Below, one piece after another: positions 9,401-49,029 of a stretch of DNA of 64,000 bases (the first letter of the stretch is position 1; each line of letters starts with the position of its first letter). Source of the stretch: Candidatus Uhrbacteria bacterium (GTDB taxonomy: Bacteria > Patescibacteriota > Patescibacteriia > UBA9934); contig CAWGHH010000004.1 in assembly GCA_963822405.1 (NCBI GenBank), forward strand, positions 6,226 to 70,225. The letters run 5' to 3'. The notes under the pieces were generated by a model. The model worked only from the letters and a program-made list of their open reading frames with translations. It was not told the origin of the DNA and searched no databases. A program made the position numbers and the translations under genes.

Positions 9401-11074
9401 AACAACTCCACAGCCCGCAAAAGAATTCAATGGATCGGCCGGTAATTCTTTTGTACCAAGCGCACCACCAAGTATATCTGCCCAGCTTGGCCAAGTACTA
9501 GCGGCTACGTTTCTGACAAATGTACCAGCGGCTAATTCAGGAACGATTGGCGAACAGGATTCACCAAGCGGACATTCGGCACTTGTAGAACAAAGCTTTG
9601 AACGCGTTCCCGAGCAAACGCTATTTTCAGTGCTATAAGTTTTTACAGCCGAACGAATATCCGTCAGATCAGACAGGCGACGTACATCACGACGCACCTT
9701 TGCCTTAGTAGAAAGACAAACCGCACCAGGAGCGGCCGAAACACAATCAGCATCTGACGAACAGGTCTTATCCGTCAATGTTCCGTTAGCCAAACAGACT
9801 GTGTCATTTCCAAGATCTATGGCAAAGGAAATATTTCCAAGCATTAAATCAAATATTTTTTGAGCCGAGGCACTTGCTCCGTCGTTATACGATAAAACGT
9901 AAATATTGGAGTATAGCTTTCCGCCGCTATAATTAGAGGCTGAGACATAAACTGTTCGACCATCACGAACTGCCTCAAAACCGTCTACAGTTGTGTTTAC
10001 CGGACTACCCTTGAAGTTCTGCGCGTCATACCAAGCACGCGGCGAAAGGTAGCCAGGGTTGCTGACAATTCTTACGCCAATAGCATCACCAGAGTTATCA
10101 CCGATTTCAAACAAATACTGCTTAAGAATGTTCGTCGTTCCGCCTACTGGTGCCCGAACCGGCGTCACCGAAGGCAAGTCGTCAGTCAGGCCGACAGCTC
10201 CCTGATCTCGACAGAAATACGTAGAGAAATTCATCCAGCCATTTCCCTCTGAAGCCAATCCTTGAGCTCCACCAGTAGCATTGTCCTGCCATGGGAATTT
10301 AGACAATGTTGGCCAAGGATTTTCACAAAGAAGGGCCGTAACCTGAGCCGATCCCTTAGTCTTTTTATCTTTTGTTCCGCCAAGTGTATCCGCAGTGATA
10401 ATGGCCTCGGCCAGAATAGTTGTCTGACCGTTCTTACCAACAGTAGCGATACTCGCGGTGCTGTGATCAACACTGCTCTGTAGGGCAGTAAATAAAGCAG
10501 CATCACCGCTCACCCACTTGTCATAATCCCAAGCGTACACGTTTACAATCGGCACAATTTCTTGCGGGCCAGTAGCGGAATGAGAAACCGCCTTCGCTAC
10601 AAAGTTATGCATCTGATCTCCACGAGTAAAGAGATATGGACTGGTTTTATCAGTGTCTGAAATCTGAACCGCATCGAGAGCACAAAGTGATGGGCCAGTA
10701 GTGAAAGTAGAGGAAGTGACACCGCCCAAAGCAACGCCAGATGCCGCAGCTATTCCGGTTACTGACGAGTCGTTCACGTTCGTGTCACCCTCGACGACTA
10801 AGGTGTACTTAGCATTTGGCTCAAGTGCTTTTGCGTACTTCAAGTAAACTTTGTAAGTGCCATCATCCTGTGCAACCTGCGAGTATCCAGTCACCGGCAA
10901 CAAACACTTGGCGCCAACATTCGGCGCAGCTGAGGCAGACGCGCCCATGAAGAACCGAACGATCGAGTTTTTGACTAACGCGAAGAATCCCTTTGGATCA
11001 TGCGAAAGGGCAACCTGATAGCCACTTGGGCAAGTCATGTTCGGAGATACTGGTTCGAGCTGGCCCAGGACCAA
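6470..11074 (-). CDS. Giant (>=1534 aa) secreted Cys-rich repeat protein with C-terminal vWA-like domain; start uncertain (may be fused to the upstream giant ORF)
   Basis: Long ORF. Multiple C-x-CGDG/CGNG...E-CDDG...C repeats (e.g. [29 protein letters not shown]; [28 protein letters not shown]) of the Myxococcus-type cysteine-rich-repeat kind. C-terminal region resembles a vWA fold (AYVVFVTT...[10 protein letters not shown]). The 5' end overlaps the upstream ORF by about 77 to 100 nt in another frame and the tracked start is TTG. Confidence 0.7.
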
Positions 11075-16145: not shown

Positions 16146-17936
16146 TTAAAAGAGGACGCAGGCAGAAGCCGACGAAACTCCGTTGCAACAGTAAGGGGAA
16201 GAGGCAGTAACACCACAAACACCACCCGTCGCATCCGGTCCAGCGCCTGGTACATAACAATTCTGATACTCGTTCAAAAGTCCACTCGTGACCGTCGAGC
16301 CATATTCGTAAGTCTTGCCGTCAACTGACTGCAGGAACGTACCGTGGCTTATTTTCACAAGCGTCTGAGCGGGAATCTGAGAACCAGAAGTCACTAACTC
16401 GCCATTACTCGTTAAGTATGAAGTGCTTGGCGAATACCACATTTCATGCGAAGTGTTGGTTGATAATTCCTTATTAGACAAACTAATCGTGTCTTGTGAA
16501 ATGGTCGAGGTCATTAAAACGCCATCAAAAGTCACCAGCACTGGCTGATCAAGTGGCACATTCTCCTCAGAAATATTCGGCGAGATAGAAGTTATACTTG
16601 GCCCCTTAAGCGCAATGTCACCAGTGGTCGAAAAGCCCCAGGCGAAGCTGTCTCCGGCCGTTCCGTCATGATTACCGTCTAACGAGTTACCAGCCATGTC
16701 GACAACCCCGTCATATGGGAAGATATCAGCCTGCGGAGGATTCGTGGTGGTAGTCGCGCCTCTAACAGTTGCTGTCAGAGTACTGCTTCCCGGAAGACAG
16801 ACGATTGTTTCACCGCAAGAATTAGTTCCGCATGGACTGTCAGAATGGAACGTAACTGATGTATAGCCGTTGGAAATTTCATACGTTCCAGTCACCGGAG
16901 TAGCACCAGCAGTAATGGCGATATTTGAAAATCCCCCAGCCTGAGCGTGTTGACCGGAAGCTGACGTAGGATCAACTGGTTCAGAAAAAGTAGCTTGCAC
17001 TACAATGTTTCGAGCAAACGTACCAGCATTTGCCGGCGTCACGCTCACGATAGTAGGAGGCGTGAGATCAAGAACGGTACCAGTTTCAAATGACCATTTG
17101 TAACCACCGCTATATGAACCAGCAAAGATTTTGTTTCCGCTGGCATTTTTAATATCAGCAGTCAGTTGCACCGTGTACTGCACTTTACTGGTTGGCGAAC
17201 CTAAATAGACGGCCGGCTTAAAGACAAAAGTCCTGTGATCATCAGTCGAGCTGATCGTCACATCTGTCAAAGCTCCTGGCGCACCAGACGCCGTAGGAAA
17301 AATCTTAACCGAGCCTACCGTGACCGTAGCTGGATCAATCGCTTCCTTAAAAGTAAGCATCACTTTAGCGTTCCTCGCTACGTCTGTTTGATTACGTGTT
17401 GGGTAGTGATCACGAATCGGCCCGGAACCAAGCGCGCCAGATAGACTCTCTACGGAAACTCCCCCATTACCGCCGCCACCAGTACCGCCATTACCACCGC
17501 CAGTACCACCGGTGATAGCGTTTATCACGAATGTTGTAATCCCGTATGCGCTCAGCGTAATAACAATTCCGACCGTAGCTTGAATTAAAATATTCTTAGC
17601 CTTAACAACCTTTTTGTCATCCCCACCGGCCGTCATCCAGATAACTCCAGCGTAGATTGTCAAAATAAGAAAAACAACTCCCAACAATCCTAGGAATATG
17701 CTGATTATTCGACCGATGATTGTAGGAAGATCAGCTCCCCCAAGTCCGGCCGTGGCCGCTACCTGCGCTGCTTGATCTGTCTGCGCTAAAACGTGTGGCG
17801 CAGAAAATAAAAAGCCGCCCACAAAAACACCAAGGCCAAGTAAAAGAGAAATCCGCGCCGTTCGGCTCAACATAGTCCCCACTATTTTACCGCAAAAAAA
17901 GAGTCCCCACGTTATTTGCATGGGGACACTTTCCAA
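16146..17936 (-). CDS. Cell-surface protein (596 aa by first ATG; likely start at 17873) with the same signal-peptide/2-TM N-terminal module followed by bacterial Ig-like (Big/SbsA-type) domains
   Basis: MLSRTARISLLLGLGVFVGGFLFSAPHVLA-QT, then IIGRIISIFLGLLGVVFLILTIYAGVIWMTAGGDDKKVVKAKNILIQATVGIVITLSAYGI, then GGTGGGNGGTGGGG. Big-like PTIVSVTPANAGT...VQATFSEPVDP. The N-terminal module is collinear with that of the 1712-aa protein. Confidence 0.85.
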   Translation of the reverse strand: MESVPMQITWGLFFCGKIVGTMLSRTARISLLLGLGVFVGGFLFSAPHVLAQTDQAAQVAATAGLGGADLPTIIGRIISIFLGLLGVVFLILTIYAGVIWMTAGGDDKKVVKAKNILIQATVGIVITLSAYGITTFVINAITGGTGGGNGGTGGGGNGGVSVESLSGALGSGPIRDHYPTRNQTDVARNAKVMLTFKEAIDPATVTVGSVKIFPTASGAPGALTDVTISSTDDHRTFVFKPAVYLGSPTSKVQYTVQLTADIKNASGNKIFAGSYSGGYKWSFETGTVLDLTPPTIVSVTPANAGTFARNIVVQATFSEPVDPTSASGQHAQAGGFSNIAITAGATPVTGTYEISNGYTSVTFHSDSPCGTNSCGETIVCLPGSSTLTATVRGATTTTNPPQADIFPYDGVVDMAGNSLDGNHDGTAGDSFAWGFSTTGDIALKGPSITSISPNISEENVPLDQPVLVTFDGVLMTSTISQDTISLSNKELSTNTSHEMWYSPSTSYLTSNGELVTSGSQIPAQTLVKISHGTFLQSVDGKTYEYGSTVTSGLLNEYQNCYVPGAGPDATGGVCGVTASSPYCCNGVSSASACVLF

Positions 17937-18016
17937 CCCAGAGAGAAATATGTATCAGAAAATTTTTAGGAGGTAACCCGACTCAAATTTTATGATGCAT
18001 ATTTCTCTCTGGGTTG
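17936..18016. repeat. Conserved-loop hairpin element, copy 1 (about 30-bp perfect stem; loop TTAGGAGGTAACCCGACTC on the plus strand)
   Basis: Left arm aacccagagagaaatatgtatcagaaaattt, loop ttaggaggtaacccgactc, right arm aaattttatgatgcatatttctctctgggtt. The arms are reverse complements, allowing G-U pairs. Confidence 0.85.
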
Positions 18017-18028
18017 TAAGCCTTTTCA

Positions 18029-19114
18029 CTATCTTATCTCCTTACTTATCAATGTCCTCAGTTCAGGCAAACCTTCTTTTGTCAAAGCGGAAACCGGCAC
18101 GCCACCTTCTATCTCTGGCAGCTTTTTCACCAGATCGGCTTTGTTCAAAACAATAATCACTGGCGTATCTTTAATTCCCAAGGACTTCAGAATATCTTCA
18201 ACTACTTTTTTCTTCAGTTCTAACTTTGGATCGGCAGCATCAATCACATGCAACAATAAATCCGCATGAACAGCCTCAGATAAGGTTGAACGGAACGCCT
18301 TAATAAGTGACGGTGGCAAATCACGGATAAAGCCGATCGTGTCGGATAGCAACGCTGAACCACCAAGCTCAGGCAAATACATCTCACCTACCCGAGTATC
18401 AAGCGTAGCAAAAAGCTTGTTCGCCGAAACCTCCTTACGTTTCGTTAACACGTTTAATAGTGCCGTCTTGCCTGCGTTTGTGTAACCAACAAGCGCCACG
18501 GTCTTAAACCCGGCGCGCGCTCTACTCTTTCTATGTTCGGCTCTTGCTCCCTCATATGTTTCAAGCTTCTTCAAAATAGCCCGCTCTCGTTCGCGAATAT
18601 GTCGCTTCATCTTCTCCGTGTTACTCTCCCCCGCTCCCCCGCGAACGCCCGTACCACCAGCCTGCTTACCAAGCTGTGCGCCCATGTTATAAATACGCGG
18701 ACCAATGTGACGCAAACGTGCAAGTTCAATCTCTAACTTCGCCTCAGCACTCGTGGCATGCCGATCGAAGATATGCAAAATCAAGTCGACTCTATCCCAC
18801 ACCTTCATCTTAACCGGCTCTAGTGCTTCTTCGAGCCTAAACAACTGACCAGGCTTCAATAGGTCGTTTACAATCAACACATTCGCCCCAGTCGCCTTTG
18901 CCTCAGCGATTATTTCTTCGAGCTTGCCGCTACCAACAAATGTATCGTTGTCCGGTTTATCTCTGCGCTGAATAGTTTTTACAACCGCAATACCGCCGTA
19001 GGTCTGTGTTAGAGCCTCAAGCTCGGCCATCCGTTCCAGCGCTTCCGCCTTCGGGACCGTAAAGTGAACCACGTCGGCCAGAATTGCCTTGTACGCCCCG
19101 GCTGGATTACTCAT
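18029..19114 (-). CDS. hflX: GTPase HflX
   Basis: 361 aa. HflX N-domain (GSGKLEEI) plus G-domain (GYTNAGKTALLN, DTIGF). Confidence 0.9.
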   Translation of the reverse strand: MSNPAGAYKAILADVVHFTVPKAEALERMAELEALTQTYGGIAVVKTIQRRDKPDNDTFVGSGKLEEIIAEAKATGANVLIVNDLLKPGQLFRLEEALEPVKMKVWDRVDLILHIFDRHATSAEAKLEIELARLRHIGPRIYNMGAQLGKQAGGTGVRGGAGESNTEKMKRHIRERERAILKKLETYEGARAEHRKSRARAGFKTVALVGYTNAGKTALLNVLTKRKEVSANKLFATLDTRVGEMYLPELGGSALLSDTIGFIRDLPPSLIKAFRSTLSEAVHADLLLHVIDAADPKLELKKKVVEDILKSLGIKDTPVIIVLNKADLVKKLPEIEGGVPVSALTKEGLPELRTLISKEIR

Positions 19115-24993: not shown

Positions 24994-25563
24994 GTGGAAG
25001 GTATGACCTTCATCATTCTTGGCCTTGGTAATCCTGGTGAGGAATACGAGAGAACTCGGCATAACGCCGGGTTTCTTGTTGTTAATGAATTAGCAAAAAA
25101 ACTAAACGTCTCTTTTAAGGACGTAGATTCTTTTCAAGCCGAAGTTGCTGACGGACGGATTGGAGATCACAAAGTCATCATTGCAAAACCATGGACGTTC
25201 ATGAATGCTTCTGGTCGAGCCGTCAGTGCCCTGGCTAATTTCTACAAAGTGCCCCCAAATCACATCATCATCGTCGCTGACGATGTCTCTCTTCCACTTG
25301 GAACGCTCAGAGTACGCACCGAAGGATCAGCTGGCGGACATAACGGATTGAAATCGATCATCGAACATCTAAAAACAGAATCATTCCCCCGCGTAAAAAT
25401 CGGCGTAGATCCTCAACCAGCCAACGTCCCTCTGGAGGCCTGGGTGCTCTCAAGGCTCTCCAAAGATGAACTCAAACTCTTGTCACCCGTCATTGATCAG
25501 GCGGTTAACGAGCTCATAGACGCAGTCCAGGAAGGAGTCTCGCCCACTACCGCCAAACTATGA
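24994..25563 (+). CDS. pth: Peptidyl-tRNA hydrolase
   Basis: 189 aa. FIILGLGNPGEEYERTRHNAGF signature. Confidence 0.95.
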   Translation: MEGMTFIILGLGNPGEEYERTRHNAGFLVVNELAKKLNVSFKDVDSFQAEVADGRIGDHKVIIAKPWTFMNASGRAVSALANFYKVPPNHIIIVADDVSLPLGTLRVRTEGSAGGHNGLKSIIEHLKTESFPRVKIGVDPQPANVPLEAWVLSRLSKDELKLLSPVIDQAVNELIDAVQEGVSPTTAKL

Positions 25564-26658
25564 CAGACCCGTTTCTTGTTGCCCTCGCAAACTGTCCTGT
25601 TTTTGGATCTAGATCGCTCGAAAAACTGATGACACGATTTTCTACCGCTGAAGCCGCCTGGGTATCGAGCCCAGACGAACTCATGACGCTCGGACTTGGG
25701 GAACAAAGAGCAAACGCATTCATCGCGTATCGCAAAACAACGAATCCACTATCCCTCACTGAATTGCTCAGAACAACCGGCGTACGAATGATCACCAAAG
25801 ATGATTCTGAATATCCGCCACTCCTCAAAACAATCTTTGATCCGCCATTTGTATTATTTCTAAAAGGAGCGCCACTTAAAGAATTGTGCGTTTCTATTGT
25901 TGGTTCTCGTCGGAATACTGAATACGGCAAAAAAGTCGCCACTCGATTCGCCAAAGAACTAGCCCAAAGAAACATAAGCATCATTTCCGGCCTAGCAGAA
26001 GGAATAGATACCGCCGCATATAAAGGAGCAATCGAAGGAAAAGGACATACTGTAGCCGTGCTTGGCGGAGGATTATTAAAACGCAATAGCCGTGATAAAG
26101 AATTAGCAGCCCAAGAAGTACTCGCCAATAACGGCACCGTTATTTCAGAGTTCCCTCTACGAGGATCGTTTATAAGTTTTCATTTTCCGATGCGCAATAG
26201 AATAATTGCAGGCATGAGTAAAATTACACTAATTGTCGAAGCGGCCCTGCCATCCGGCACGTTAACCACAGCCAAGGCAGCGGCTGAAGCAGGTCGGGAT
26301 GTATTCGCTGTACCCGGTCCAATAGATTCATTTACCTCTACAGGAACAAACAATCTTATAAAAGAAGGCGCTTTTGTTGCAACTAGCCCAGAAGACATAT
26401 TTCTTGCTCTCGAAATGAGTTCGCCGTCCCCAAGGCCAGCGACTATTCAAAATCAAATTTCTTTACCAAAAATTCTTCCCACTCTAGAACCCATTTCTGC
26501 AAAACTCTACGAGCATCTCCAAACAGGCACCTCTCTTTGCGGATGAACTTACTCTAAAGACCGGACTGTCTTCACCAGAAGTTTCACGGGCACTACTCGA
26601 ACTAGAACTCATGAGTCTCGTGAAGCACTTGGGAGGAACTAGGTACGAGTGTACCTGA
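25560..26658 (+). CDS. dprA: DNA processing protein DprA (Smf); the C-terminal winged-helix domain is encoded in the +1 frame after an apparent frameshift near 26535-26545
   Basis: Rossmann core VSIVGSRRNTEYG...LAEGIDTAAYKGA in the ORF ending 26546. The next frame continues ...DELTLKTGLSSPEVSRALLELELMSLVKHLGGTRYECT* (a DprA_WH-like C-terminus), ending with TGA at 26656-26658. Confidence 0.8.
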
Positions 26659-26660
26659 GC

Positions 26661-26737
26661 GGAATGAAGAGATATGTCCCATAAAATTTGAGTCGGATTA
26701 CCTCCTAAAAATTTTATGGGACATATCTCTTCATTCC
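26661..26737. repeat. Conserved-loop hairpin element, copy 2a (loop GAGTCGGATTACCTCCTAA on plus, the complement of the other copies)
   Basis: Arms ggaatgaagagatatgtcccataaaattt and aaattttatgggacatatctcttcattcc are perfect reverse complements around a 19-nt loop. Confidence 0.9.
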
Positions 26738-26739
26738 TA

Positions 26740-26818
26740 GGGCGAATCGTAAATGTCCTCCAGAAATTTTTAGGAGGTAATCCGACTCAAATTTCCGGAG
26801 GATATTTACGATTCGCCC
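26740..26818. repeat. Conserved-loop hairpin element, copy 2b (loop TTAGGAGGTAATCCGACTC), adjacent to 2a in the inverse core orientation
   Basis: Arms gggcgaatcgtaaatgtcctccagaaattt and aaatttccggaggatatttacgattcgccc, with two G-U-type mismatches. Confidence 0.9.
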
Positions 26819-26900
26819 GACCAAATTTTAGGGAAATACTTTCATTGTTGAAGAGACTCCTTGACGATGATGTATCATTCGAGCTATCAATTTCGCAAAT

Positions 26901-29177
26901 ATGCCCCCACTTCTAATTGTAGAGTCCCCCACCAAAGCCAAAACAATTAACAAATTTCTTGGCTCAAGTTACACAGTTATTTCGTCATACGGCCACATTA
27001 GAGATCTTCCAAAAAACAAAATGGGCGTAGATACCAAACACAACTTTGCCCCGACATACATCATCCCAGATGACAAAAAGGATAAAGTGAAGGCCCTTCA
27101 AACGGCTGCAAAAAAAGCTTCAGAAGTCTATCTCGCAACCGACGAAGACCGCGAAGGAGAAGCCATTGCCTGGCACATTGCTGAAGTGCTGGACCTAGAT
27201 GAAAAAACCGCCAAACGCATTACCTTCCACGAGATCACTAAGAGCGCTATAGAGAACGCCCTTAAGAACGCTCGAACGCTAGACATGCACCTGGTAGACG
27301 CCCAACAGGCACGTCGTATTCTTGATCGCCTGGTAGGTTTTGAGTTGTCACCGCTACTCTGGAAAAAAGTCCGAAGAGGACTTTCGGCTGGACGTGTACA
27401 ATCAGTGGCTGTTCGTATTGTAGTAGAGCGTGAACGTGAACGCCTCGCCTTCAACCAAGAAGAGTACTGGTCTATTGAAGGTGTATTTGAAAAATCTGGA
27501 ACTGAATTCCCAGCTAAACTTCAGGCCATCGGCGATAAAAAAATAGACAAGCTAGACATCAAAAATACTAAAGAAGCGCAAGCAATAGTTGAGGCTGTTA
27601 AAGACGCAAAATTTTCAGTCATCTCTGTTGAAGAAAAAGAAGCGAGCAAGAAACCGCCAACCCCACTCACTACTTCCACCCTTCAACAAGAAGCGCATAA
27701 CCGCCTAGGAATGAGCGCGAAGCAAACCATGACGCTAGCACAAAAGCTATACGAAACCGGTTTCATCACTTACATGCGTACTGACTCATTAAACATGAGC
27801 ACGCAATTTCTAGATGCCGCCCAAACATACATCAAAACTACTTTTGGAACTGAATACGCCAAGGGTTCAGTGGCTTACCACACCTCAAAAAAAGGAGCAC
27901 AGGAAGCGCACGAAGCAATTCGCCCGACCAACCCAGACGCATCTCCGGATGATGCTCGCGCCTCGCTTGATCCTGGCATGGCCAAACTATATGACCTCAT
28001 CTGGCGTCGTACCATGGCCTCTCAGATGCCCTCAGCCAAGATGCAGCGAACCGCTATTGATCTCTTGGGTAATGACCACACTTTCCGAGCCACTGGCTCA
28101 ACAGTTGTCTTTGATGGCTACATGAAAGTCTGGCAAGCCTCTGAAGACAAGCTCTTACCCGCCATGACTAAGGGCGATGACCTTGGACCAGCCAAGGAGA
28201 TTAAACCAGAACAGCATTTCACAGAACCTCCTGCTCGCTATTCTGACGCTACGCTAGTCAAAGCACTTGAAGAACATGGCGTCGGTCGTCCATCTACTTA
28301 CGCTCCAACACTGTCGACCATCGAAGCGCGTGAATACGTCCTACGAGATGATAATAAGAAACTATATCCATCAGACATTGCCATGATCGTCACGGATCTT
28401 TTGGTCGAGCATTTTCCACAGATTGTTGACCTAGAATTTACTGCAAAAATGGAAAAGCAGTTCGACGCCATTGCTGACGGCGAAGAATCATGGACCCAAG
28501 CTATAGATGATTTCTACGAGCCGTTCCATAAACTGATTGAAGAGAAAACTGAAGATTTATCACGTTCCGATATCATGAAGGAACGCTCACTCGGCGTAGA
28601 CCCGGTAACTGGTCTTGAAGTCATCGCCAGAAACGGCCGGTTCGGTCCGTTTGTGCAGCTTGGACCAATCACAGACGAGATTAAGCCTAAGCGCGCGTCC
28701 CTTGAAAAGCATCAAGCGCTAGAAACTATCACGCTCACGGACGCCATGAAGCTATTCATTCTGCCTCGTGAGCTAGGCGCCCATCCAAATGGTTACGCGA
28801 TCATTGCCAACACCGGACGCTTCGGTCCGTACCTTAAGTGCGGCGATATGAATATCTCGCTCCCGGAAGGCACAGACCCAAAGACGATCACCCTTGAACA
28901 AGCCATTGAGTTCTGCACAAGCGGTGTTGAAAAGAAGATCAAGATGAACACGCCTATTGCGGAGCTCGGCGAAGATCCGGAAACAAAAGCTAAGATTCTC
29001 GTGAAGGACGGTCGATTCGGCCCGTATGTCACAGACGGCAAAACAAACGCCACCATTAAAAAAGACATCGATCCTAAATCGATTACTCGAGAAATGGCGA
29101 TCGAAATGCTCGAAAAGAAACGCAAGGCACCGAAACGAAAATTCACGCGCAAACCAAAAGAAACAACCGAGGCTTAA
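26901..29177 (+). CDS. topA: DNA topoisomerase I
   Basis: 758 aa. TOPRIM (LLIVESPTKAKTI...GHIRDL), catalytic Tyr region, and three C-terminal GRFGPF/Y repeats. Confidence 0.96.
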   Translation: MPPLLIVESPTKAKTINKFLGSSYTVISSYGHIRDLPKNKMGVDTKHNFAPTYIIPDDKKDKVKALQTAAKKASEVYLATDEDREGEAIAWHIAEVLDLDEKTAKRITFHEITKSAIENALKNARTLDMHLVDAQQARRILDRLVGFELSPLLWKKVRRGLSAGRVQSVAVRIVVERERERLAFNQEEYWSIEGVFEKSGTEFPAKLQAIGDKKIDKLDIKNTKEAQAIVEAVKDAKFSVISVEEKEASKKPPTPLTTSTLQQEAHNRLGMSAKQTMTLAQKLYETGFITYMRTDSLNMSTQFLDAAQTYIKTTFGTEYAKGSVAYHTSKKGAQEAHEAIRPTNPDASPDDARASLDPGMAKLYDLIWRRTMASQMPSAKMQRTAIDLLGNDHTFRATGSTVVFDGYMKVWQASEDKLLPAMTKGDDLGPAKEIKPEQHFTEPPARYSDATLVKALEEHGVGRPSTYAPTLSTIEAREYVLRDDNKKLYPSDIAMIVTDLLVEHFPQIVDLEFTAKMEKQFDAIADGEESWTQAIDDFYEPFHKLIEEKTEDLSRSDIMKERSLGVDPVTGLEVIARNGRFGPFVQLGPITDEIKPKRASLEKHQALETITLTDAMKLFILPRELGAHPNGYAIIANTGRFGPYLKCGDMNISLPEGTDPKTITLEQAIEFCTSGVEKKIKMNTPIAELGEDPETKAKILVKDGRFGPYVTDGKTNATIKKDIDPKSITREMAIEMLEKKRKAPKRKFTRKPKETTEA

Positions 29178-36733: not shown

Positions 36734-36744
36734 TAAAGAAAACC

Positions 36745-36847
36745 CCATTAAATTCGCCCTGGCGGTGTCGTCTCCTGCGCCCCGGTCTCGCCGTACCATT
36801 AAGTACGTCTCGACCAGTGCTCGTCGACTCCTAGCCAGGACAAATTT
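36745..36847 (+). other. About 100-nt structured spacer between two tRNAs (closing helix ccattaaatt...aatttaatgg, internal GC-rich helices); unassigned, possibly a small RNA or processing element
   Basis: Inverted repeats ccattaaattcgccctggc / gccaggacaaatttaatgg enclose about 65 nt containing further local hairpins (ccgtac-cattaa-gtacg). No coding potential that does not overlap tRNAs. Confidence 0.3.
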
Positions 36848-36917
36848 AATGGAGTTTTCAATTAGCGAATAAGCACTGGCAACTTGCATTTTTCAGTACT
36901 CCCTGCTATCATTTTGT

Positions 36918-36995
36918 CGCGGGATAGAGCAGCCAGGCAGCTCGTCGGGCTCATAACCCGGAGGTCGTCGGTTCAAATCCGACTCCCGCAACCAA
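36918..36995 (+). tRNA. Initiator tRNA-fMet (anticodon CAT)
   Basis: C1-A72 mismatch at the acceptor end (cgcggga/tcccgca) and three consecutive G-C pairs closing the anticodon stem (ggg...ccc), which are the bacterial initiator hallmarks. CCA encoded. Confidence 0.85.
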
Positions 36996-40525: not shown

Positions 40526-40583
40526 AATTCAGCTCCTACTTTGACGCCCGGGCAAACCCGGGCGTTTGTATATTCAGCCTTTT

Positions 40584-40668
40584 CCAAACCAAAAGCGACA
40601 CACTGTCATAAAATTTTTAGGAGGTACTCCGACTCAAATTTTAGGATAGTGTGTCGCTTTTGGTTTGG
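40584..40668. repeat. Conserved-loop hairpin element, copy 3 (loop TTAGGAGGTACTCCGACTC)
   Basis: Arms ccaaaccaaaagcgacacactgtcataaaattt and aaattttaggatagtgtgtcgcttttggtttgg, 33 bp with G-U pairs. Confidence 0.9.
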
Positions 40669-40675
40669 ATCCGCA

Positions 40676-42082
40676 CTAGGCAAGCTTAATATTCGCCTCT
40701 TTCAGTGCCTTCTCAGGCAGTGGAGAAGGCGCACCCATCATGTGGTCTCGAGCGTTTCCGTCCTTCGGGAATGCCATTACTTCACGAATGTTCGCCTCGC
40801 CCTGGAATAATGCCATAACGCGGTCTACGCCGAGCGCAATACCTCCATGTGGTGGTGCGCCAAGTTCAAACGCTTTCATCATGTGACCAAACTGTGCATC
40901 GATCGTTTCAGCCGGGAAACCCATGATCTCGAATACTTTTCTGAGCGCGTCTGGCTGATGATTACGGATAGATCCACCACCGATTTCAAAACCGTTTAGC
41001 ACAATGTCGTACTGACTAGTGATGATATTGCCAACATCTTCTTTGCTCATGAGCTTGTCGTGCCATTCTGGCAATGCAGCCGAGAATGGATTATGGGTAA
41101 AGGTTCATCCACCGTCTTCTGTCTTTTCAAAGAACGGGAAGTCAATTACCCAACAGAACGCGAATAAGTTAGGATCATTCTTGTCTTCACGAATATCTGG
41201 ACGGTCATTTCCATACTTCTCCATGGATTCTTTATAGGTCATGCGTGGAAACGGCAATGCCTGGATCTTAGCGTCTGGTCTATATGTTTTAACGAGCTGA
41301 ATCAAAAGTTCTTCGATCATGCTCATCACATCTTCACGTTCCACAAAGCTCATCTCAAGGTCGAGCTGAGTAAATTCTGGCTGACGATCTCCACGTTGAT
41401 CCTCATCACGGAAACACTTGGCTAGCTGATAATAGCGTTCAACACCGGCCACCATAAGCAACTGTTTAAATTGCTGCGGTGACTGCGGAAGAACATAAAA
41501 ATTACCTGGGTGCGGACGAGAAGGCACAATGAATTCACGCGCACCTTCAGGAGTTCCTTTGGTGAGGATCGGAGTTTCAACCTCAATAAATCCTTTCTCA
41601 TTGAAATACTTACGCATGTCTTGAAATACAGCGTGACGAGTTCGCAGGTTCTTCTGCATGCGCTCCGAACGAAGATCGAGATAGCGGTAAGCCAAACGAG
41701 TCTCCTCATTCACCGGCAAGGTATCTTTATCGATTTCAAATGGCGGAGTCTTGGACTCGTTCAACACCTTCACAGATTTTGCTAGCAGTTCAACCGTTCC
41801 GGTCTTGATCTTATCGTTAATCTGCTTCGGGCCTCGAGCCTGGACTACTCCCTCAATCTCAACTACCCACTCAGGACGAACTTTGTTCGCTGCCTCAGCA
41901 GTATCACCGACCTCCGAAGGAACAATAACTACTTGCAATAAACCGTTCTTATCACGCAGATCAAAAAACGCTACCTTGCCCATGTCACGACGAGCGTGAA
42001 CCCAACCAGCCACCTTCACCGTCTCACCAACCTTACCCACTGTCTCTGACGAATAAATTCGTTGCATATAATTATCTAGCAT
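40676..42082 (-). CDS. aspS: Aspartate--tRNA ligase, compact type lacking the GAD insertion; interrupted by an in-frame TGA at 41105..41107
   Basis: N-terminal OB-fold plus motifs 1 and 2 (FRDEDQRGDRQPEFTQLDLEMSF) in ORF 41105..42082, and motif 3 (GGIALGVDRVMAL) in ORF 40676..41074. Both are in the same frame, separated only by TGA: ...FFEKTEDGG*TFTHNPFSAALPEW... aligns without a gap to the E. coli GEGGLTAMHHPFTSP region. Confidence 0.88.
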
Positions 42083-42261
42083 TTAATCTTGTAATTATTT
42101 GAGGGCGTGAGGGATATTGCTAATGCAGCGAGGAATTGCATTTATTAGGAGGTCGACATCCTTCGAATTTTCAGAAAATAGTTCGACCGACTCTAAATGC
42201 CCGCGCCAAGTCAGCAACATCCCTCGTGCCCGAAAGCTCATAAAGAAAGAATTCAGTGGGC

Positions 42262-42398
42262 GAATAAAAAACTCGCCCTCACAACACAATTCATTTAAGA
42301 ATTATGTGCTAAGGGCGAATTTCATTTCGCGGTGCCACCTTGCTTTGTACTTTTTATTAAGTTTTAGCCCGGCGCGATTGTCAGTCGCGTCTAACTGC
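42262..42398 (-). promoter_or_regulatory. T-box-like riboswitch leader of aspS (short stem I with GAC specifier in a hairpin loop, T-box sequence, terminator/antiterminator)
   Basis: Minus-strand leader: specifier hairpin cgcga-cuGACAa-ucgcg (42389..42373); T-box motif AAGGUGGCACCGCG (42341..42328; consensus AGGGUGGNACCGCG, with the UGGC bulge complementary to a G73-CCA acceptor end); competing helices gcgaa/uucgc and aaauucgcccu/agggcgaguuu followed by UUUUUU (42270..42265). Confidence 0.6.
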
Positions 42399-42516: not shown

Positions 42517-42900
42517 TTGTCACACCTCGAACCGCGCCCAGCGGAAGGCAAACCCTCAACCGGCGAACACGACGCCGTCACCGTGAAAAAGAGGAAATTT
42601 ACGAAGGCAGATAAAGCCCAGTTTCAACGGATCACCGCCATTGCAGAACAGGCGGTTCATGCCATCCGATATCCCGCCGAAGCCACGGAGCAAGATCACT
42701 ACTCGCTCAAACTCCTGACAGACGCAGATGTCGTCACCATCAAGATGAGCGCCAAAGAGATGTGCAAATCCATTGGCGCTCTCAGGCGAACAATTGATGA
42801 CTTGATCGCAGGCAACGGAGCCGAAGTCGAGTGGATCAAACCGCTCAACTATCTCCTGCTTGTTCACAAGTCTCGTCCGTCACGCGGCATCGACAAATGA
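42517..42900 (+). CDS. Hypothetical protein (127 aa)
   Basis: ORF only, no recognisable motif. Confidence 0.4.
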   Translation: MSHLEPRPAEGKPSTGEHDAVTVKKRKFTKADKAQFQRITAIAEQAVHAIRYPAEATEQDHYSLKLLTDADVVTIKMSAKEMCKSIGALRRTIDDLIAGNGAEVEWIKPLNYLLLVHKSRPSRGIDK

Positions 42901-44784: not shown

Positions 44785-45569
44785 CTAGTATATCTTCACG
44801 GTTGGTTCAGGCGTCAACAATTCTGGACCACTCGGCAGAATAGCAATAGTTACTTCAAAATGGGCTGAAATAGATTTATCGGCCGTTATTATGGTCCAAC
44901 CGTCTTTGGCGGTCACAACATCATGAGTACCAAGCGTGACCATCGGTTCAATGGCTAAGCACATCCCCTCTTTAAGATTTGTTTTAGGAAATGCGTTACT
45001 AACATAATTCGGCACATGAGGAGATTCGTGAATGGCGTGACCTACGCCATGACCAACTAACGCCTCCACGATTCCGTATTTCTTTTTATTAATGGCCCCT
45101 CCACTGCCACGCTAATGTCATGTACAGTTCCGCCAATTTTTGCCGCCGCCACCCCCGCACGCATTGACTCACGAGTAGTGTTTAAAAGCTGTTTCAATTC
45201 ATCGGAAATTTCCCCCACAGGAACCGTGACCGCCATATCAGTGCACATGTCTTTATACCAACAACCAATATCAAGCCCAACTACATCCCCCTCATTCAGT
45301 ACTATATCTCGAGTGCCAACGCCATGAACAACCTCTTCGTTAACCGAGATACAAACAGTTGAGGGAAAGGGGGTTTTATTACCGCCCTTGTAGCCCAAAA
45401 AAGATGGCTTTCCGCCTCCCTTCTCAATAACCCCGCGCGCGATAGTATCAAGCTCATGCATGGTTACTCCCGGTCTAATCGCATCCACTGCCGCCTGAAG
45501 CGCTCTGGACAATAAAACCCCACCCTCACGCATGGCTTGGATCTCTTCTTTTGTTTTAATCAAAGCCAT
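44785..45569 (-). CDS. map: Methionine aminopeptidase type I, with a -1/+1 frameshift in a poly-A tract near 45068-45080
   Basis: ORF 45057..45569 carries the MetAP N-terminus plus D/D metal ligands. ORF 44785..45069 carries ...VGHGVGHAIHESPHV...E...E ligands. The junction lies in ccattaataaaaagaaatac, where a 1-nt shift restores a continuous protein. Confidence 0.85.
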
Positions 45570-45571
45570 AT

Positions 45572-46123
45572 CTAAAGAACAAATAATTTTTCTATCCTCT
45601 GAGCCACTTCCTCAATCGTTCCCATTCCGTCAACCTCGCGTACAACACCAAATTTCTTGTACTCATCAATAATCGGCACAGTATCTGTACTGTAAATTCC
45701 CAATCTCTTTTCAATTATTTCGGGGGTATCATCCGTCCGACCTTCAGTGACTGCTCTGTTCTGCAATCTAGCTCGAGACTCACGCTTCGGAATATCAATG
45801 ACTATAACCGCCGTTGGTTGATCAAATCCCGCAAACGCTTTCATCTGTTCAAAATTTCTAGGAAATCCATCCAAAATGTATCCACTGACCACGTCCGGTT
45901 CCATCAAACGCTTTCGCAATACCGCCTCAGCCACTACGTCAGAAACCAAATTTCCAGTATCAACTATTGCCCTGACTTTCTCGGCCAGAGGCCCCTCTCC
46001 TTTAGCCTCTTCTCGCAAGAGATGGCCCATAGACAAATATGGTATCCCAAGATGTGCCGACAGTCTGGCCGCCTGCGTCCCCTTTCCGCACCCCTGTGGT
46101 CCCAATATTAGAATTCTATGCAT
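45572..46123 (-). CDS. adk: Adenylate kinase
   Basis: 183 aa. P-loop GPQGCGKGTQA. Short form without a zinc lid. Confidence 0.95.
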   Translation of the reverse strand: MHRILILGPQGCGKGTQAARLSAHLGIPYLSMGHLLREEAKGEGPLAEKVRAIVDTGNLVSDVVAEAVLRKRLMEPDVVSGYILDGFPRNFEQMKAFAGFDQPTAVIVIDIPKRESRARLQNRAVTEGRTDDTPEIIEKRLGIYSTDTVPIIDEYKKFGVVREVDGMGTIEEVAQRIEKLFVL

Positions 46124-46129
46124 AAGCTA

Positions 46130-47142
46130 CTAAGGGATGATAGATGCTATACAGGCTTGTTGCAAGATATACCCCTCACAATGGTCAAGCATTCCCAAAT
46201 ATGACGAGATATTCGTCGAATTAACCTTCCTCAACATCCGCCTTTTCGTCTTAGTTCTCAGCACCCGGTGGTACGGCCGAGTGACATATCCAAGGAAATC
46301 AATCCCTTGTGATAATTTCCTGACCTCGATTTTTCTAGGATGAAGTTCGAGTCGTCTCTCCCGCCAAAACCAAGCCTCAATCCAGGGAATAAGCTCTTTA
46401 AGCCGATCTCTGTCTTGATCAAGAATAACCGCATCATCGGCAAACCGAATATAGAACCTTTCTCGTAAATCTTCTTTGATAAAATGGTCGAATGCATCCA
46501 TGTAGACATTTGCAAACAATTGACTGGTCAAATTTCCAATCGGCAGTCCAACCATCCGAACGTCTTTTAGTGAACCCCCCCCCCAACCCTGTCATGCAAA
46601 ATCGAAACATGAAAACTACCCACAATCTCCCGGAGTAACGTCATCACGCGCCGGTCCTGAATCTTTTCGTCAAGTAGCCCGAGCAAAATCTCGTGATCCA
46701 CCGAATCAAAAAACCTTCTAATATCAAATTTAAGTGCCCAACAAGAATCCGTCCAATTCTCGCTTGTCTTTCTCACAAAAACCTCAAGCCGCTCCACTGC
46801 GGCATGCGTCCCCTTATCATCCCGACACGAATAACTATCAAAGATAAATGACCGTTCAAAAATCGGTAGCAGAACCCGATAAATAGCGTGATGAACAAGT
46901 CGATCACGAACAGTTGCCTTATTAATTATTCGTGGCTTGGGGTCAAAGACTTTGAACCGATGATACGGCCCATGTCGATAGGTGCCGTTAAACAGTTCTT
47001 CATGCAGTTCAAACACATGATCTTCAAGATTCCGTTCAAACATCTGCACGTCAATTCGCCCACGTTTGCCATCAGCACAAAATTCACGCCATGCGTTAAA
47101 TAGATTCGTCTTACTAACTATCTTTGAAAATATGTCTCTCAT
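46130..47142 (-). CDS. DGR reverse transcriptase (about 335 aa), split by a frameshift in a 10-nt poly-C/G run at 46575..46584
   Basis: RT domains 0-3 in ORF 46567..47142 (NAWREF..., TVRDRLVHHAIYRVLLPIFE, FIFDSYSCRDDKGTHAA, LKFDIRRFFDSVDHEIL). Domains 4-7 in ORF 46130..46555 (GLPIGNLTSQLFANVYM, the DGR-diagnostic [ILV]GxxxSQ motif rather than the group II QGxxxSP; YIRFADDAVIL). No maturase or endonuclease domains. Confidence 0.88.
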
Positions 47143-47476
47143 ACAAGAAGCGCCAGTATTCCAGTTAATTTATGACGAGCTCAAGGCGTTCCATCTCCTC
47201 AGAAAGAAGTTCGATAAAGGTGAACGGTATTCACTTGGCGAAAAAACCGAGCAAACACTACTTGACGTGCTCTTAGAGATCATCAAGGCCGGAACGTCAA
47301 AAAATGAATGGAAAATTGCCGCCATAGACTCCGCCAGTAAGCATCTTGAGGTCACTAAAATTCTCCTAAGACTCGCAAACGACATGGAACAGATTGAGGA
47401 TAAACATTATGAGGAACATCAGGAACGGATCAGCAGGGCGGGAAGAATGCTCGGTGGCTGGCGAAAAGCATCATAA
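47132..47476 (+). CDS. avd: DGR accessory variability determinant (Avd, four-helix-bundle family)
   Basis: About 115 aa from MSLIQEAPVFQLIYDELKAFHLLRKKFDKGERYSLGEKTEQ... to ...RAGRMLGGWRKAS. FPKxEKYxLxxQ-like and C-terminal GRxLGxW motifs as in bAvd. Its start codon overlaps the divergent RT start (atgtctctcat). Confidence 0.8.
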   Translation: MSLIQEAPVFQLIYDELKAFHLLRKKFDKGERYSLGEKTEQTLLDVLLEIIKAGTSKNEWKIAAIDSASKHLEVTKILLRLANDMEQIEDKHYEEHQERISRAGRMLGGWRKAS

Positions 47477-47516
47477 CGCAAACGCCCAGCTCAGCTGGAC
47501 GTTTGAGAGAAAACAG

Positions 47517-47642
47517 TCCCGGCGGAAGACTACCGTGCCGTACTGCGGATTCGCGTCATCGTTCCTGTTGTCGTTCAGCTTCGGCGAACCGTTCCACACC
47601 AGGAGGTACGCGCAGTTCGAGCGGTTCTCACGGTGGACGGAA
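47517..47642 (-). repeat. DGR template repeat (TR), 126 bp
   Basis: 88% identical to 47965..48090. All 12 mismatches have T on the plus strand (A in the minus-sense TR) where the VR has C, G or A. Confidence 0.9.
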
Positions 47643-47960
47643 AGATCTTCTGTATGCCAGACCCCATCTATTTCACCTCAGCTTCCGCACTAGGCGCGAG
47701 GTTGCTGATGAATTTCATTTAGGCCATATCCTAAGAATCTGGCAAGGAGTGTCTCATCTGATCGTACGCTCCCGTGTCTCACAACACGGAATTCTGACGA
47801 TAGCTCGTTTGAGGATTTCGGGGCCGGAGAGGCTTAGTTCTTCGTTCATTACCCTACTCTCAAGATGAGTATATATGAAAATCCTCCAGTCAGCTTGCGC
47901 CGACCGGAGGATCGAGGGTTGATGGCACGAGAAGCACCGAGAACCCAATGACCGAGGACT

Positions 47961-48740
47961 TTACTCCCGGCGGAAGACTACCGCGCCGCACTGCGGATGC
48001 GCGTCATCGTCCCTGAAGCCGTGCAGCTTCGGCGAACCGTACCACACCAGGAGGTACGCGCAGCACGAGCGGTTCCCACGGTGGACGGAACCAGGCAAGT
48101 CCATCACGTGCTCGCCTTCCACCGCCACGTTCTGGCTCTGATGGTGAATCCAGATTGCCAGGCCAACTTCCGCAGTTCCAGGGAAGAAGCCACGCTTCAC
48201 GGCCTCTTCCCGGCACACGCTCGGCTTCTTGCCGCGGTTCACGCGCCCGTCATGCGCCCGGATCCAGTGTGGCTCTGCCGGCGTGATGTCGCGCGGGCTG
48301 TACGGCTCCAGATTGGACACGCCGCAGTCTTTCACGAGAGCCAGCTCGCAGGTCTTCACCAGCCCGTTGACCGGGTAGACGAGGGTCAGGAGCGGGAAGT
48401 CGGGGTCATGCTCGAGGAGCGAGTCCGGGATCTCCGGGATGGTGGCCAAGAAGGCCTCCCAGAGATCCTTGCCCTTAAGCCGCCCGTTGAACTTCAGGTC
48501 GTACAAGCGCTTCGCCTGCGTTACCCGGGTATCGTCCGGCTTGCGGCGGCCCAACTTCTGAAGCGCCTCCTGGAAGGCCTTGGGCAGCTTGTTGCCGGAC
48601 TCGATGATCCGCTGAGCGGACTCGCCGTCCAACTCGTCCAACTTGCTCGTGAGCACCAAGAAGGCGTCCTCCACGAACCGCTTAAGTTGTTTCTTCTGTC
48701 CATCCGTCTGACCAGACGTGATCGCCTTGGGCGTCATCAT
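47961..48740 (-). CDS. DGR target protein (259 aa) with C-terminal variable region
   Basis: GGAGG-N-ATG at 48740. The C-terminal 42 codons coincide with the VR. GC-rich. The N-terminal domain is unassigned. Confidence 0.8.
   Translation of the reverse strand: MMTPKAITSGQTDGQKKQLKRFVEDAFLVLTSKLDELDGESAQRIIESGNKLPKAFQEALQKLGRRKPDDTRVTQAKRLYDLKFNGRLKGKDLWEAFLATIPEIPDSLLEHDPDFPLLTLVYPVNGLVKTCELALVKDCGVSNLEPYSPRDITPAEPHWIRAHDGRVNRGKKPSVCREEAVKRGFFPGTAEVGLAIWIHHQSQNVAVEGEHVMDLPGSVHRGNRSCCAYLLVWYGSPKLHGFRDDDAHPQCGAVVFRRE
47965..48090 (-). repeat. DGR variable repeat (VR) at the 3' end of the target gene
   Basis: Starts 1 nt after the TAA stop (47961..47963) and covers the last 42 codons (...CCAYLLVWYGSPKLHGFRDDDAHPQCGAVVFRRE). 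Confidence 0.9.
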
Positions 48741-48815
48741 CCACCTCCTAACACATGGGTTCCGCCATGTCGGTTTGTACCGGAATCACCCAACGGATGT
48801 GCCGATAACCGGCTA

Positions 48816-48844
48816 ATCATAGCAAAAAAATGGTCTTTTGTCAA
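48816..48844 (-). promoter_or_regulatory. Consensus sigma70 promoter, module C (TTGACA-N17-TATGAT) for the DGR target gene
   Basis: Minus strand TTGACA at 48844..48839 and TATGAT at 48821..48816. Same module as A and B, including the upstream GGCTAAT element. Confidence 0.65.
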
Positions 48845-48933
48845 GGTAAAATCACCATAAATTGGCTAATTCAAGCCAAACAAAAAGTCCATCTCTAGAT
48901 TCTTCGCCCATGCTCAGAAACGAATTCGGCAAA

Positions 48934-48962
48934 TCACCAAAACGACCCCGTTAAGGGTCGTT
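48934..48962 (-). terminator. Rho-independent terminator downstream of secY
   Basis: Minus strand aaacgaccc-uuaacg-gggucguuu followed by a U-run. Confidence 0.6.
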
Positions 48963-49029
48963 TGTCTTATCTCGTCTTGTGCGCGTCTCCCCCTCCACGA
49001 AGTGGAGGGGGTTTAGGGGGAAGGAAAAT

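Follow-up and report, generated by a model that had tools for sequence, protein, structure and literature searches.

A 64-kb housekeeping stretch of the chromosome of a Candidatus Uhrbacteria bacterium (contig CAWGHH010000004.1, positions 6,226 to 70,225; the window, hereafter) contains five copies, named c1 to c5, of a long hairpin whose centre hardly changes from copy to copy and whose stems change a great deal and go on pairing. A first-pass annotation of the window had described four of them as a family of hairpins with variable stems around a conserved loop of 19 nucleotides (nt). All four are real and lie where it placed them, and it overlooked the fifth. I propose that the family is a lineage-specific dispersed palindromic element of the REP/BIME kind, whose folded single strand is read by a trans-acting factor that co-evolves with it. 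This is the explanation I prefer, and I would give it a little under an even chance. The copies are as follows, the arms being those returned by an inverted-repeat search.

c1: 17934..18016, plus strand; core TTAGGAGGTAACCCGACTC at 17966-17984; arms 17931-17965 and 17985-18019, 35 nt, 91% complementary.
c2: 26661..26737, minus strand; perfect stem of 29 bp; core at 26690-26708, which reads TTAGGAGGTAATCCGACTC on the minus strand; arms 26661-26689 and 26709-26737, 29 nt, 100% complementary.
c3: 26740..26818, plus strand; core at 26770-26788; arms 26740-26769 and 26789-26818, 30 nt, 93% complementary.
c4: 40583..40669, plus strand; core TTAGGAGGTACTCCGACTC at 40617-40635; arms 40583-40616 and 40636-40669, 34 nt, 94% complementary.
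c5: 42103..42231, plus strand; a rod of 129 nt; core halves TTAGGAGG (42145-42152) and CCGACTC (42187-42193).

In c1 to c4 the arms, of 29-35 nt and 91-100% complementarity, enclose exactly 19 nt. A scan for the 19-mer TTAGGAGGTAAYCCGACTC that allows up to three mismatches gives four occurrences in the window against 0.00 expected, one of them on the minus strand; the loop variants reported earlier (AACC, AATC and ACTC) and the single complemented copy are confirmed. These four hairpins, at folding energies of -43 to -52 kcal/mol, have z-scores of -9.6 to -12.6 relative to dinucleotide shuffles. Each of their arms matches its own partner and nothing else in the window, which rules out the arms as guides or as copies of other sequences there. 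Two of the copies, c2 and c3, form a head-to-head doublet, separated by 2 nt, and their 31-nt cores are 100% complementary. The fifth copy, c5, carries a 34-nt apical stem-loop between its core halves, has the inner stem GCATTTA/TAAATGC and scores 42.4 bits (E 4e-6) with a covariance model.

The family was followed into syntenic DNA of relatives, reached through their orthologues of TopA and ScpA (CAYGEQ01, Ga0606640, Ga0376277/k141_1617898 and Ga0170573). In all, about 236 kb from five draft Patescibacteria genomes was covered, the loci of the relatives bearing labels such as L003 or L022, with L023 and L024 as outgroup loci. Covariance models, one full-length and one of the core only, run with filters off, recover 17 members in this DNA. 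They score 42-61 bits with the core model, and the next-best matches score at most 20 bits. All 17 are hairpins of 75-140 nt, and all are intergenic.

Each copy consists of three zones: a basal stem, a conserved module and a free apical tip. In the basal stem, of 20-45 bp, pairing alone is preserved. The module begins with an A/T-rich helix of 7-8 bp, followed by an asymmetric internal loop (UU/C or UU/A), two Watson-Crick pairs, tandem G.A/A.G pairs and two G-C pairs. The tip is a UAAY or UACU tetraloop or else an inserted stem-loop of up to 35 nt. The 19-nt loop is as well conserved in sequence as had been claimed, but it is predicted to be a structured internal-loop module with a variable tip rather than an open loop. 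In the predicted fold AGGAGG faces CCGACU, giving A-U and G-C pairs, the tandem G.A and then the two G-C pairs. Three observations support the fold. Variation among the short copies is limited to the tetraloop positions. The three length variants (13, 27 and 30-35 nt) are all inserted exactly at the apex, and each folds on itself. Finally, the closing pair of the core is G-C in all four copies from the genome of L010 and L021, whose variant core is GGGAGG/CCGACC, a compensated change; it is A-U in the other 13 copies and unpaired in none of the 17. The first-pass annotation held that all copies share an inner stem AAATTT/AAATTT. Some do, but elsewhere the helix is AAATTG/CAATTT, AAAATT/AATTTT or CATTTA/TAAATG, every one of them compensated; U-A has become G-C in five copies, A-U has become U-A, and there are others. 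About 9 bp below the core, the pair at position 9 is non-canonical in 11 of 17 copies, mostly G.A, a purine-purine mismatch.

Similarity between stems had been said to decay outward, with compensatory changes, and so it does. An alignment of 11 copies shows two-sided change at 26 of its 32 pairs and pairing in 84% of cells, which drops to 65% after shuffling; none of 500 shuffles came up to these values. If one partner is slid by a single column, pairing collapses to 50-58%. The stems differ between copies and between genomes, so they are not the identical arms of a simple repeat. For copies that share a site, a gapless comparison was run from the core towards the ends, and their orthology was taken from synteny because clustering by arm sequence is too noisy to sort them by locus. 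Fully compensated changes in these comparisons number 12, 16, 20, 7, 7 and 5 pairs, with 0-2 pairs unpaired. Among them are the following.

c2 and L019A: 28 pairs examined; 12 fully compensated, 1 one-sided and still paired, 0 unpaired.
c2 and L010A: 29 pairs examined; 16 fully compensated, 0 one-sided, 0 unpaired.
c3 and L019B: 29 pairs examined; 7 fully compensated, 1 one-sided and still paired, 1 unpaired.
c4 and L022: 31 pairs examined; 7 fully compensated, 3 one-sided and still paired, 0 unpaired.
L020 and L021: 20 pairs examined; 5 fully compensated, 1 one-sided and still paired, 2 unpaired.

The surrounding coding DNA is 75-79% identical between these genomes. The arms therefore evolve about as fast as the coding DNA that flanks them, keeping their pairing, with a core that is nearly invariant. 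The covariation is robust and the feature is real, and the same can be said of the invariance of the module and of its compensated change in one genome.

How far does the family extend? The exact core pattern TTAGGAGGTNNNCCGACTCAAA was sought in 185,579 species genomes, one for each species, and true copies appeared in one metagenome-assembled genome (MAG), CAYGEQ01; the other three matches have no flanking arms. Metagenome contigs, searched with the same pattern, gave only chance matches without arms, and two scans of viral contigs likewise found no members. There are none among plasmids and phages by BLAST, and none at the outgroup loci by the covariance models. The concern that the motif might be common without flanking complementarity is not borne out, since public collections hold only a few such chance matches, in unrelated taxa. 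In Rfam 15 no hairpin reaches a gathering threshold (in the window only tRNAs pass), and at relaxed thresholds the hairpins match only generic models of plant and animal microRNA precursors, far below the cut-offs. A phage origin can be rejected: there is no DNA match, and the window is a housekeeping region of a Patescibacteria chromosome, with ftsZ/ftsA, hflX, hisS, der, dprA, topA, relA, parAB, scpAB, aspS, recO, a ribosomal-protein operon and tuf/fus. Its closest TopA and ScpA homologues belong to Patescibacteria and Uhrbacteria MAGs. Judged by these scans and by the distribution of covariance-model matches, the family is confined to a narrow clade of related Patescibacteria.

Then there is the matter of which strand folds. 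The strand that reads TTAGGAGG...CCGACTC folds better than its complement, by 2.6-13 kcal/mol, in 12 of 15 copies; in two perfect copies both strands fold equally, and the order is reversed in c5 of the window only. What makes the difference is the G.U and G.A pairs, whose counterparts on the complement are A.C and C.U. This bias tracks the element and not the transcription of the host: at hflX (c1) and at adk-map (L020 and L021) the better-folding strand is antisense to the mRNA. The GC skew of the plus strand is negative throughout the window, and a replication mutation bias linked to such a skew would, one may reason, favour the opposite pattern of mismatches. Since it is the element, and not host transcription, that decides which strand is protected, I lean slightly towards folded single-stranded DNA over RNA as the form that is recognized.

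Most copies start 0-12 nt past a stop codon, in minimal intergenic gaps: 12 nt past that of hflX, 2-3 nt past that of dprA in three genomes and 0-2 nt in L009, 6-8 nt past aspS, and 0 nt past both adk and an SNase gene. In the window, c1 lies between the stop codon of hflX (18029-18031, minus strand) and a minus-strand intrinsic terminator 6 nt away (17903-17927). The doublet occupies the dprA-topA gap, with c2 beginning 2 nt past the dprA stop (TGA, 26656-26658) and c3 upstream of a conserved promoter-like element of topA, TTGACG (26861-26866) and TATCAA (26885-26890). For its part, c4 is 6 nt past the stop codon of aspS (minus strand, 40676-40678) and follows a plus-strand terminator (40543-40566) at a distance of 16 nt. 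The 5' leader of aspS contains c5, with a conserved T-box terminator on one side of it and the start codon on the other. The copies do not share one orientation relative to host genes. The mRNA carries the complement, GAGUCGG...CCUCCUAA, at hflX, dprA-1, aspS-3', adk and the aspS leader; it carries the TTAGGAGG strand at dprA-2, L003, L006 and L009.

Presence is patchy among close relatives, and the neighbouring genes are intact at empty sites. The head-to-head doublet between dprA and topA is found in three genomes (the site of c2 is occupied in L019/L005 and L010). In the window, and likewise in CAYGEQ01, the two cores of the doublet do not differ. The same gap in L009 has just one copy, which points the other way, and relatives whose TopA is 74-75% identical have a gap of 36-38 nt. 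The c1 site is empty in L009 and L019. At adk-map the element fills the whole gap in L020 and L021, and the gap in the window, TAGATATG only, is empty. The copy in the aspS leader is present in the window, L021 and L022 and absent from L020 / CAYGEQ01. At the c4 site, the copy in L022 has an apical region 24 nt longer.

Two side observations concern these sites. The more distant L024 (TopA 71%) has, at 9762-9990, an unrelated dprA-topA spacer of 240 nt with an imperfect hairpin (z about -3) that lacks the core motif. Analogous hairpins with a different core were considered for the outgroup dprA-topA sites and rejected, two of the gaps being 36-38 nt long and the third this weakly structured spacer. 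Three element sites adjoin genes of DNA uptake or nucleases: the comEC operon (L003 3524-4660), the gene of a secreted SNase-like nuclease (L006 303-887) and dprA (window 25560-26658). This may be a coincidence in genomes rich in competence genes.

What sort of element would behave in this way? An invariant, non-palindromic centre, combined with compensated change throughout a genome, argues for recognition of the folded strand by a factor that evolves along with it. Under the proposal made at the outset, the module would be read in its folded, single-stranded state by a trans-acting protein encoded elsewhere and co-evolving with it. The element would spread or persist through that factor, as REPs do with the RAYT transposase, and any effects on host mRNAs, at gene ends, in the adk-map operon or in the aspS leader, would be side effects or secondary co-options. 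The resemblance to REP/BIME and REPIN elements lies in the mixed orientation, the strand bias intrinsic to the element, the inverted doublets, the location at gene ends and the patchy presence.

REPINs fold into hairpins as single-stranded DNA or mRNA, show compensatory changes and have a cognate single-copy transposase (PMC3116915, PMC3337134). The copies described here share with REPs, BIMEs and REPINs that they are short dispersed extragenic palindromes with compensatory stems, found in either orientation and in inverted doublets, at gene ends or between cistrons, passed on vertically for long periods with scattered gains and losses, and differing in sequence from one genome or lineage to another (PMC3116915, PMC3337134). 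An extragenic single-strand hairpin with compensatory stem changes is thus present in both. However, a REPIN is defined by two highly conserved inverted REP ends around a less conserved spacer (PMC3116915), whereas these hairpins keep an invariant centre and let their ends vary, as the alignments show. Nor is there a GTAG/CGTC tag or any sequence similarity to REPs; there are five copies per 64 kb, and the host is one of the Patescibacteria. A RAYT gene typically has REPs on its flanks; no RAYT (Y1/HUH) gene is among the genes flanking any copy, in the part of each genome that was covered. The earlier remark that a conserved loop with a freely varying stem is the opposite of MITE/REP elements has stood up, since REP, REPIN and MITE elements are conserved at their ends, and "loop-recognised RNA or DNA element" remains the best general description. 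As far as sequence can say, the family is an undescribed structured repeat of the dispersed-palindrome kind, unrelated in sequence to REP/BIME.

Several points weigh against the explanation that I prefer. The strand bias is absent or reversed in the c5 type, both strands folding equally in the orthologues of c5, and the statistic rests on about eight independent sites. In four of the five window copies, the protected strand is on the lagging-strand sequence, not on the lagging-strand template that enzymes of the IS200/IS605 type use. Pfam scans and gene tables of the 236 kb turned up no Y1/HUH transposase, recombinase or nuclease beside the copies, and comparison of filled with empty sites revealed no target-site duplication and no defined termini. 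Several sites are occupied across genomes whose coding DNA is 75-79% identical, and such long retention in streamlined genomes speaks for a benefit to the host rather than for purely selfish DNA. Finally, the core variant peculiar to one genome could have come from homogenisation among copies instead of co-evolution with a protein.

The main rival makes the hairpin a cis-acting RNA element of the host, which protects or processes mRNA as a block to 3'-exonucleases, an RNase III site or an insulator between transcription units. An RNA-binding protein, or else a nuclease, would bind its tandem-G.A loop and gauge from there a distance of roughly one helical turn down to the mismatch/wobble zone. 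I find this doubtful, if the most serious of the alternatives. It draws on the closeness of most copies to stop codons, 0-12 nt past those of hflX, dprA, aspS, adk and SNase, and on the adk-map and aspS-leader copies, which must be transcribed within host mRNAs. It draws also on sites that stay occupied, with pairing preserved, across saturated divergence. The non-canonical pairs are of a kind that RNA typically has, namely tandem G.A, a recurrent purine-purine mismatch at position 9, and G.U from position 11 to 15. REP and ERIC elements are known to stabilise the mRNA upstream of them. However, an RNA motif with a specific sequence should keep one orientation with respect to transcription, and here the orientation is mixed. 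At hflX and adk-map the fold of the mRNA is weaker by 4-9 kcal/mol, because the G.U pairs sit on the other strand, and close relatives do without individual copies, their neighbouring genes intact.

Nor are the elements needed as terminators, because canonical terminators adjoin c1 and c4. The suggestion of an unusual terminator, made in the first-pass annotation, is not supported by the A/T-rich stems that have no U-tract, where an intrinsic terminator has a short G+C-rich stem followed by one, or by the site inside the adk-map operon. A terminator scan calls no copy, and the G+C content of the hairpins is 33-45%.

A bolder reading gives the tandem-G.A module a dedicated protein partner, which would dock there, read a folded single strand of DNA or RNA, evolve in step with the module and act roughly one helical turn further along, in the mismatch/wobble zone. 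The hairpins would then belong to an undescribed system of this Patescibacteria lineage, concerned with mobilisation or with RNA processing. I consider this unlikely. If such a dedicated hairpin-recognition system were real, its anatomy, with an invariant centre and free ends, would be the inverse of that of REP/RAYT and attC/IntI.

It is also conceivable that mutation rather than function keeps the stems perfect, through arm-to-arm templated repair or template switching, and that the copies are the decaying remains of an ancient burst. That template switching can perfect quasi-palindromes is established. Such a mechanism would account for the scarcity of one-sided intermediates relative to double changes, and decayed copies do exist (L006, L009 and L010B). 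It is nonetheless improbable, for it leaves unexplained the near-invariant, non-palindromic core of 19 nt, the compensated change that all four cores of one genome share, the mismatches at a fixed distance from the core, and the strand bias.

Quite improbable, too, is a role for the hairpin in duplex or cruciform DNA, as a buffer or sensor of supercoiling or a site for nucleoid or topology proteins. Independence of orientation fits a role at the level of DNA, and REP/BIME elements bind gyrase and IHF. There is in addition a doublet conserved in three genomes 40-80 nt upstream of the promoter-like element of topA, and the A/T-rich inner helix would favour extrusion. On the other hand, where 13-35 nt are inserted at the apex, the core of the duplex is broken in two, which means that recognition must be of the folded form. 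A fold bias towards one strand is not to be expected of a symmetric cruciform, most sites have no link to topology genes, and extrusion itself is hypothetical.

The weakest of the proposals was that the loop is a Shine-Dalgarno (SD) decoy or sponge or, on its other strand, an anti-SD mimic of the 3' end of 16S rRNA. Its basis is real: the reported match to the ribosome-binding site (RBS) of the gene at 48740 (gtgTTAGGAGGTggATG) exists, TTAGGAGGT is a strong SD identical to that RBS, GGAGG is kept in every copy, and copies that abut stop codons mostly carry ACCUCCU in the mRNA. It is most improbable all the same, since AGGAGG is predicted to pair, and covaries, with CCGACU; the variant TTGGGAGG/CCGACC moves both partners together, A-U to G-C in all four copies of one genome, instead of tracking an external partner; insertions of 13-35 nt that fold on themselves part GGAGG precisely from CCGAC; the likeness of the complement to GGAUCACCUCC comes from positions, those like the GGAUCA of 16S rRNA, that belong to the variable tetraloop; the copies face either way with respect to host mRNAs; at the 5-10 nt spacing of an RBS, AGGAGG is followed by no start codon, and only c1 and c2 have an ATG further on, at 19 nt; few genes of the window have a complete GGAGG as their SD; and five copies per 64 kb are few for a sponge. 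An extended SD consensus as a proxy for the 16S tail was dropped, too few genes having a full GGAGG.

Other known families invite comparison. ERIC/IRU, Correia (NEMIS) and RUP/BOX elements are intergenic imperfect palindromes of about 70-150 bp, co-transcribed into long RNA hairpins and sometimes bearing internal insertions, and the present family is like them in size, intergenic palindromy, co-transcription, long hairpins and insertions. Families of the ERIC/Correia type are conserved over their full length, with terminal inverted repeats recognized by a transposase and usually a duplication of TA or another target. Here, in contrast, about 31 nt are conserved, the termini differ from copy to copy and no duplication is seen, so the hairpins lack both the conserved terminal inverted repeats and the target-site duplication of a miniature inverted-repeat transposable element (MITE).

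The attC sites of integrons resemble the hairpins in being recognized as a folded strand, in conserving structure more than sequence, in an apex that ranges from a few nt to a long stem-loop and in a strand preference set by unpaired bases (in part PMC5737381). They differ in that the base of attC (R''/R', RYYYAAC...GTTRRRY) is conserved and that they lie in cassette arrays beside an integron integrase gene, whereas here the conserved part is in mid-hairpin and the copies are dispersed. The stem bases vary (GGAATG, GGGCGA, CCAAAC and others), the surroundings are housekeeping genes, and no integrase was seen in them.

TIGR arrays consist of 5-15 tandem units beside the gene for Tas, a protein with a Nop domain, and each unit has two variable spacers of 8-12 nt and motifs like box C/D (PMC12045711). 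The likeness is in the variable, always palindromic stems around a loop with short conserved motifs, and TIGR-Tas too occurs in Patescibacteria (PMC12045711). Here, however, the centre is invariant and free of spacers, the copies are dispersed singly or in pairs, and no gene like Tas is nearby. With an anatomy so different, and no Nop or Tas domain in Pfam scans or Nop/Tas-like gene in the gene tables near the copies, a TIGR array can be rejected.

Among known RNA motifs, inspection rejects the kink-turn. In that motif a bulge of three nucleotides, set between a canonical and a non-canonical helix, leads directly into tandem sheared G.A/A.G pairs, whereas here two Watson-Crick pairs stand between the UU bulge and the G.A pairs and the bulge is of 2 nt against 1 nt. 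It likewise rejects the tetraloop receptor and the sarcin-ricin, signal recognition particle (SRP) and bulge-helix-bulge (BHB) motifs. The initiator tRNA gene at 36918-36991 contains GGAGGTCGTCGGTTCAAATCCGACTC, that is, both core halves (GGAGGT...CCGACTC) in the same order, and the apical insertion of c5 begins with TCGAC and ends with GTTCGA. Derivation from the initiator tRNA was considered and rejected, the resemblance being within chance for the number of regular-expression matches.

The window holds other features of interest in their own right. A hairpin of 122 nt with a basal stem of 26 bp lies between tRNA genes at 36738-36859. Its minus strand folds at -70.5 kcal/mol and its plus strand at -53.8. 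It is 78-90% identical at the same place in four relatives, has no Rfam match, and is probably the gene of a small RNA not yet described. On the minus strand it includes CUAGGAGUCGAC, similar to UUAGGAGGUCGAC of c5. The aspS gene is preceded, on the minus strand at 42262-42345, by a T-box leader. Its T-box, AAGGUGGCACCGCG, and its terminator hairpin, which has a U-run, are conserved at 89-94% identity in three relatives; the match to the T-box of Rfam is weak (21.6 bits). The open reading frames (ORFs) at 42517-42900 (plus) and 42556-42867 (minus) may overlap the upstream part of this leader. Within aspS is one in-frame TGA (41105-41107, minus strand) at a conserved tryptophan (FPFFEKTEDGG*TFTHNPF); the gene is intact in relatives, at 446-452 amino acids. 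The TGA could be a TGG-to-TGA error, the mark of a pseudogene or a site of read-through, and other genes of the window do stop at TGA. Similarly, the dprA ORF ends at 26546, the C-terminal winged-helix part following in another frame as far as the TGA at 26656-26658. Relatives have it intact at 362-366 amino acids, and the split is a frameshift or an assembly error.

Between secY and adk, at 44785-49030, lies a cassette like a diversity-generating retroelement (DGR), where relatives have secY and then adk directly. A fragment of a reverse transcriptase lies in it at 46567-47142 and probably extends into 46130-46555, and the gene at 47961-48740 has the RBS TTAGGAGGTGG. Involvement of a DGR with the hairpins was rejected, there being no core-like motif in the cassette. 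By synteny and size, adk appears to be 45572-46123. The start of map is at about 45569 (MALIKTKEEIQAMREGG), and the gene is apparently split into two ORFs (45057-45569 and 44785-45069). The conserved element before topA, TTGACG and TATCAAT with a spacer of 18 nt (26861-26901; also in L009, L010 and L019), ends 10 nt before the ATG, and there is no SD, which together suggest, at the level of sequence, an mRNA that is leaderless or nearly so. Neither aspS, nor map in L020 and L021, has a recognizable SD either.

The genomes of Patescibacteria are tiny and densely packed, and hardly any of their DNA is non-coding; to my knowledge almost no repeat families or lineage-specific structured nucleic acids have been described in them. 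In such genomes these rods persist between essential genes, within the adk-map operon and in the aspS T-box leader, at a coding divergence of 20-25%, a persistence that points to an active maintenance system or a function. Their design is unusual, with an invariant structured centre, stems that evolve and are always paired, and a tip of variable length. The family offers a natural example of selection on structure only, and it provides a handle for finding the partner protein. If that partner acts on folded single-stranded DNA, then biology like that of REP/RAYT or attC would be extended to the candidate phyla radiation. If it acts on RNA, then the module would be a new protein-binding RNA motif.

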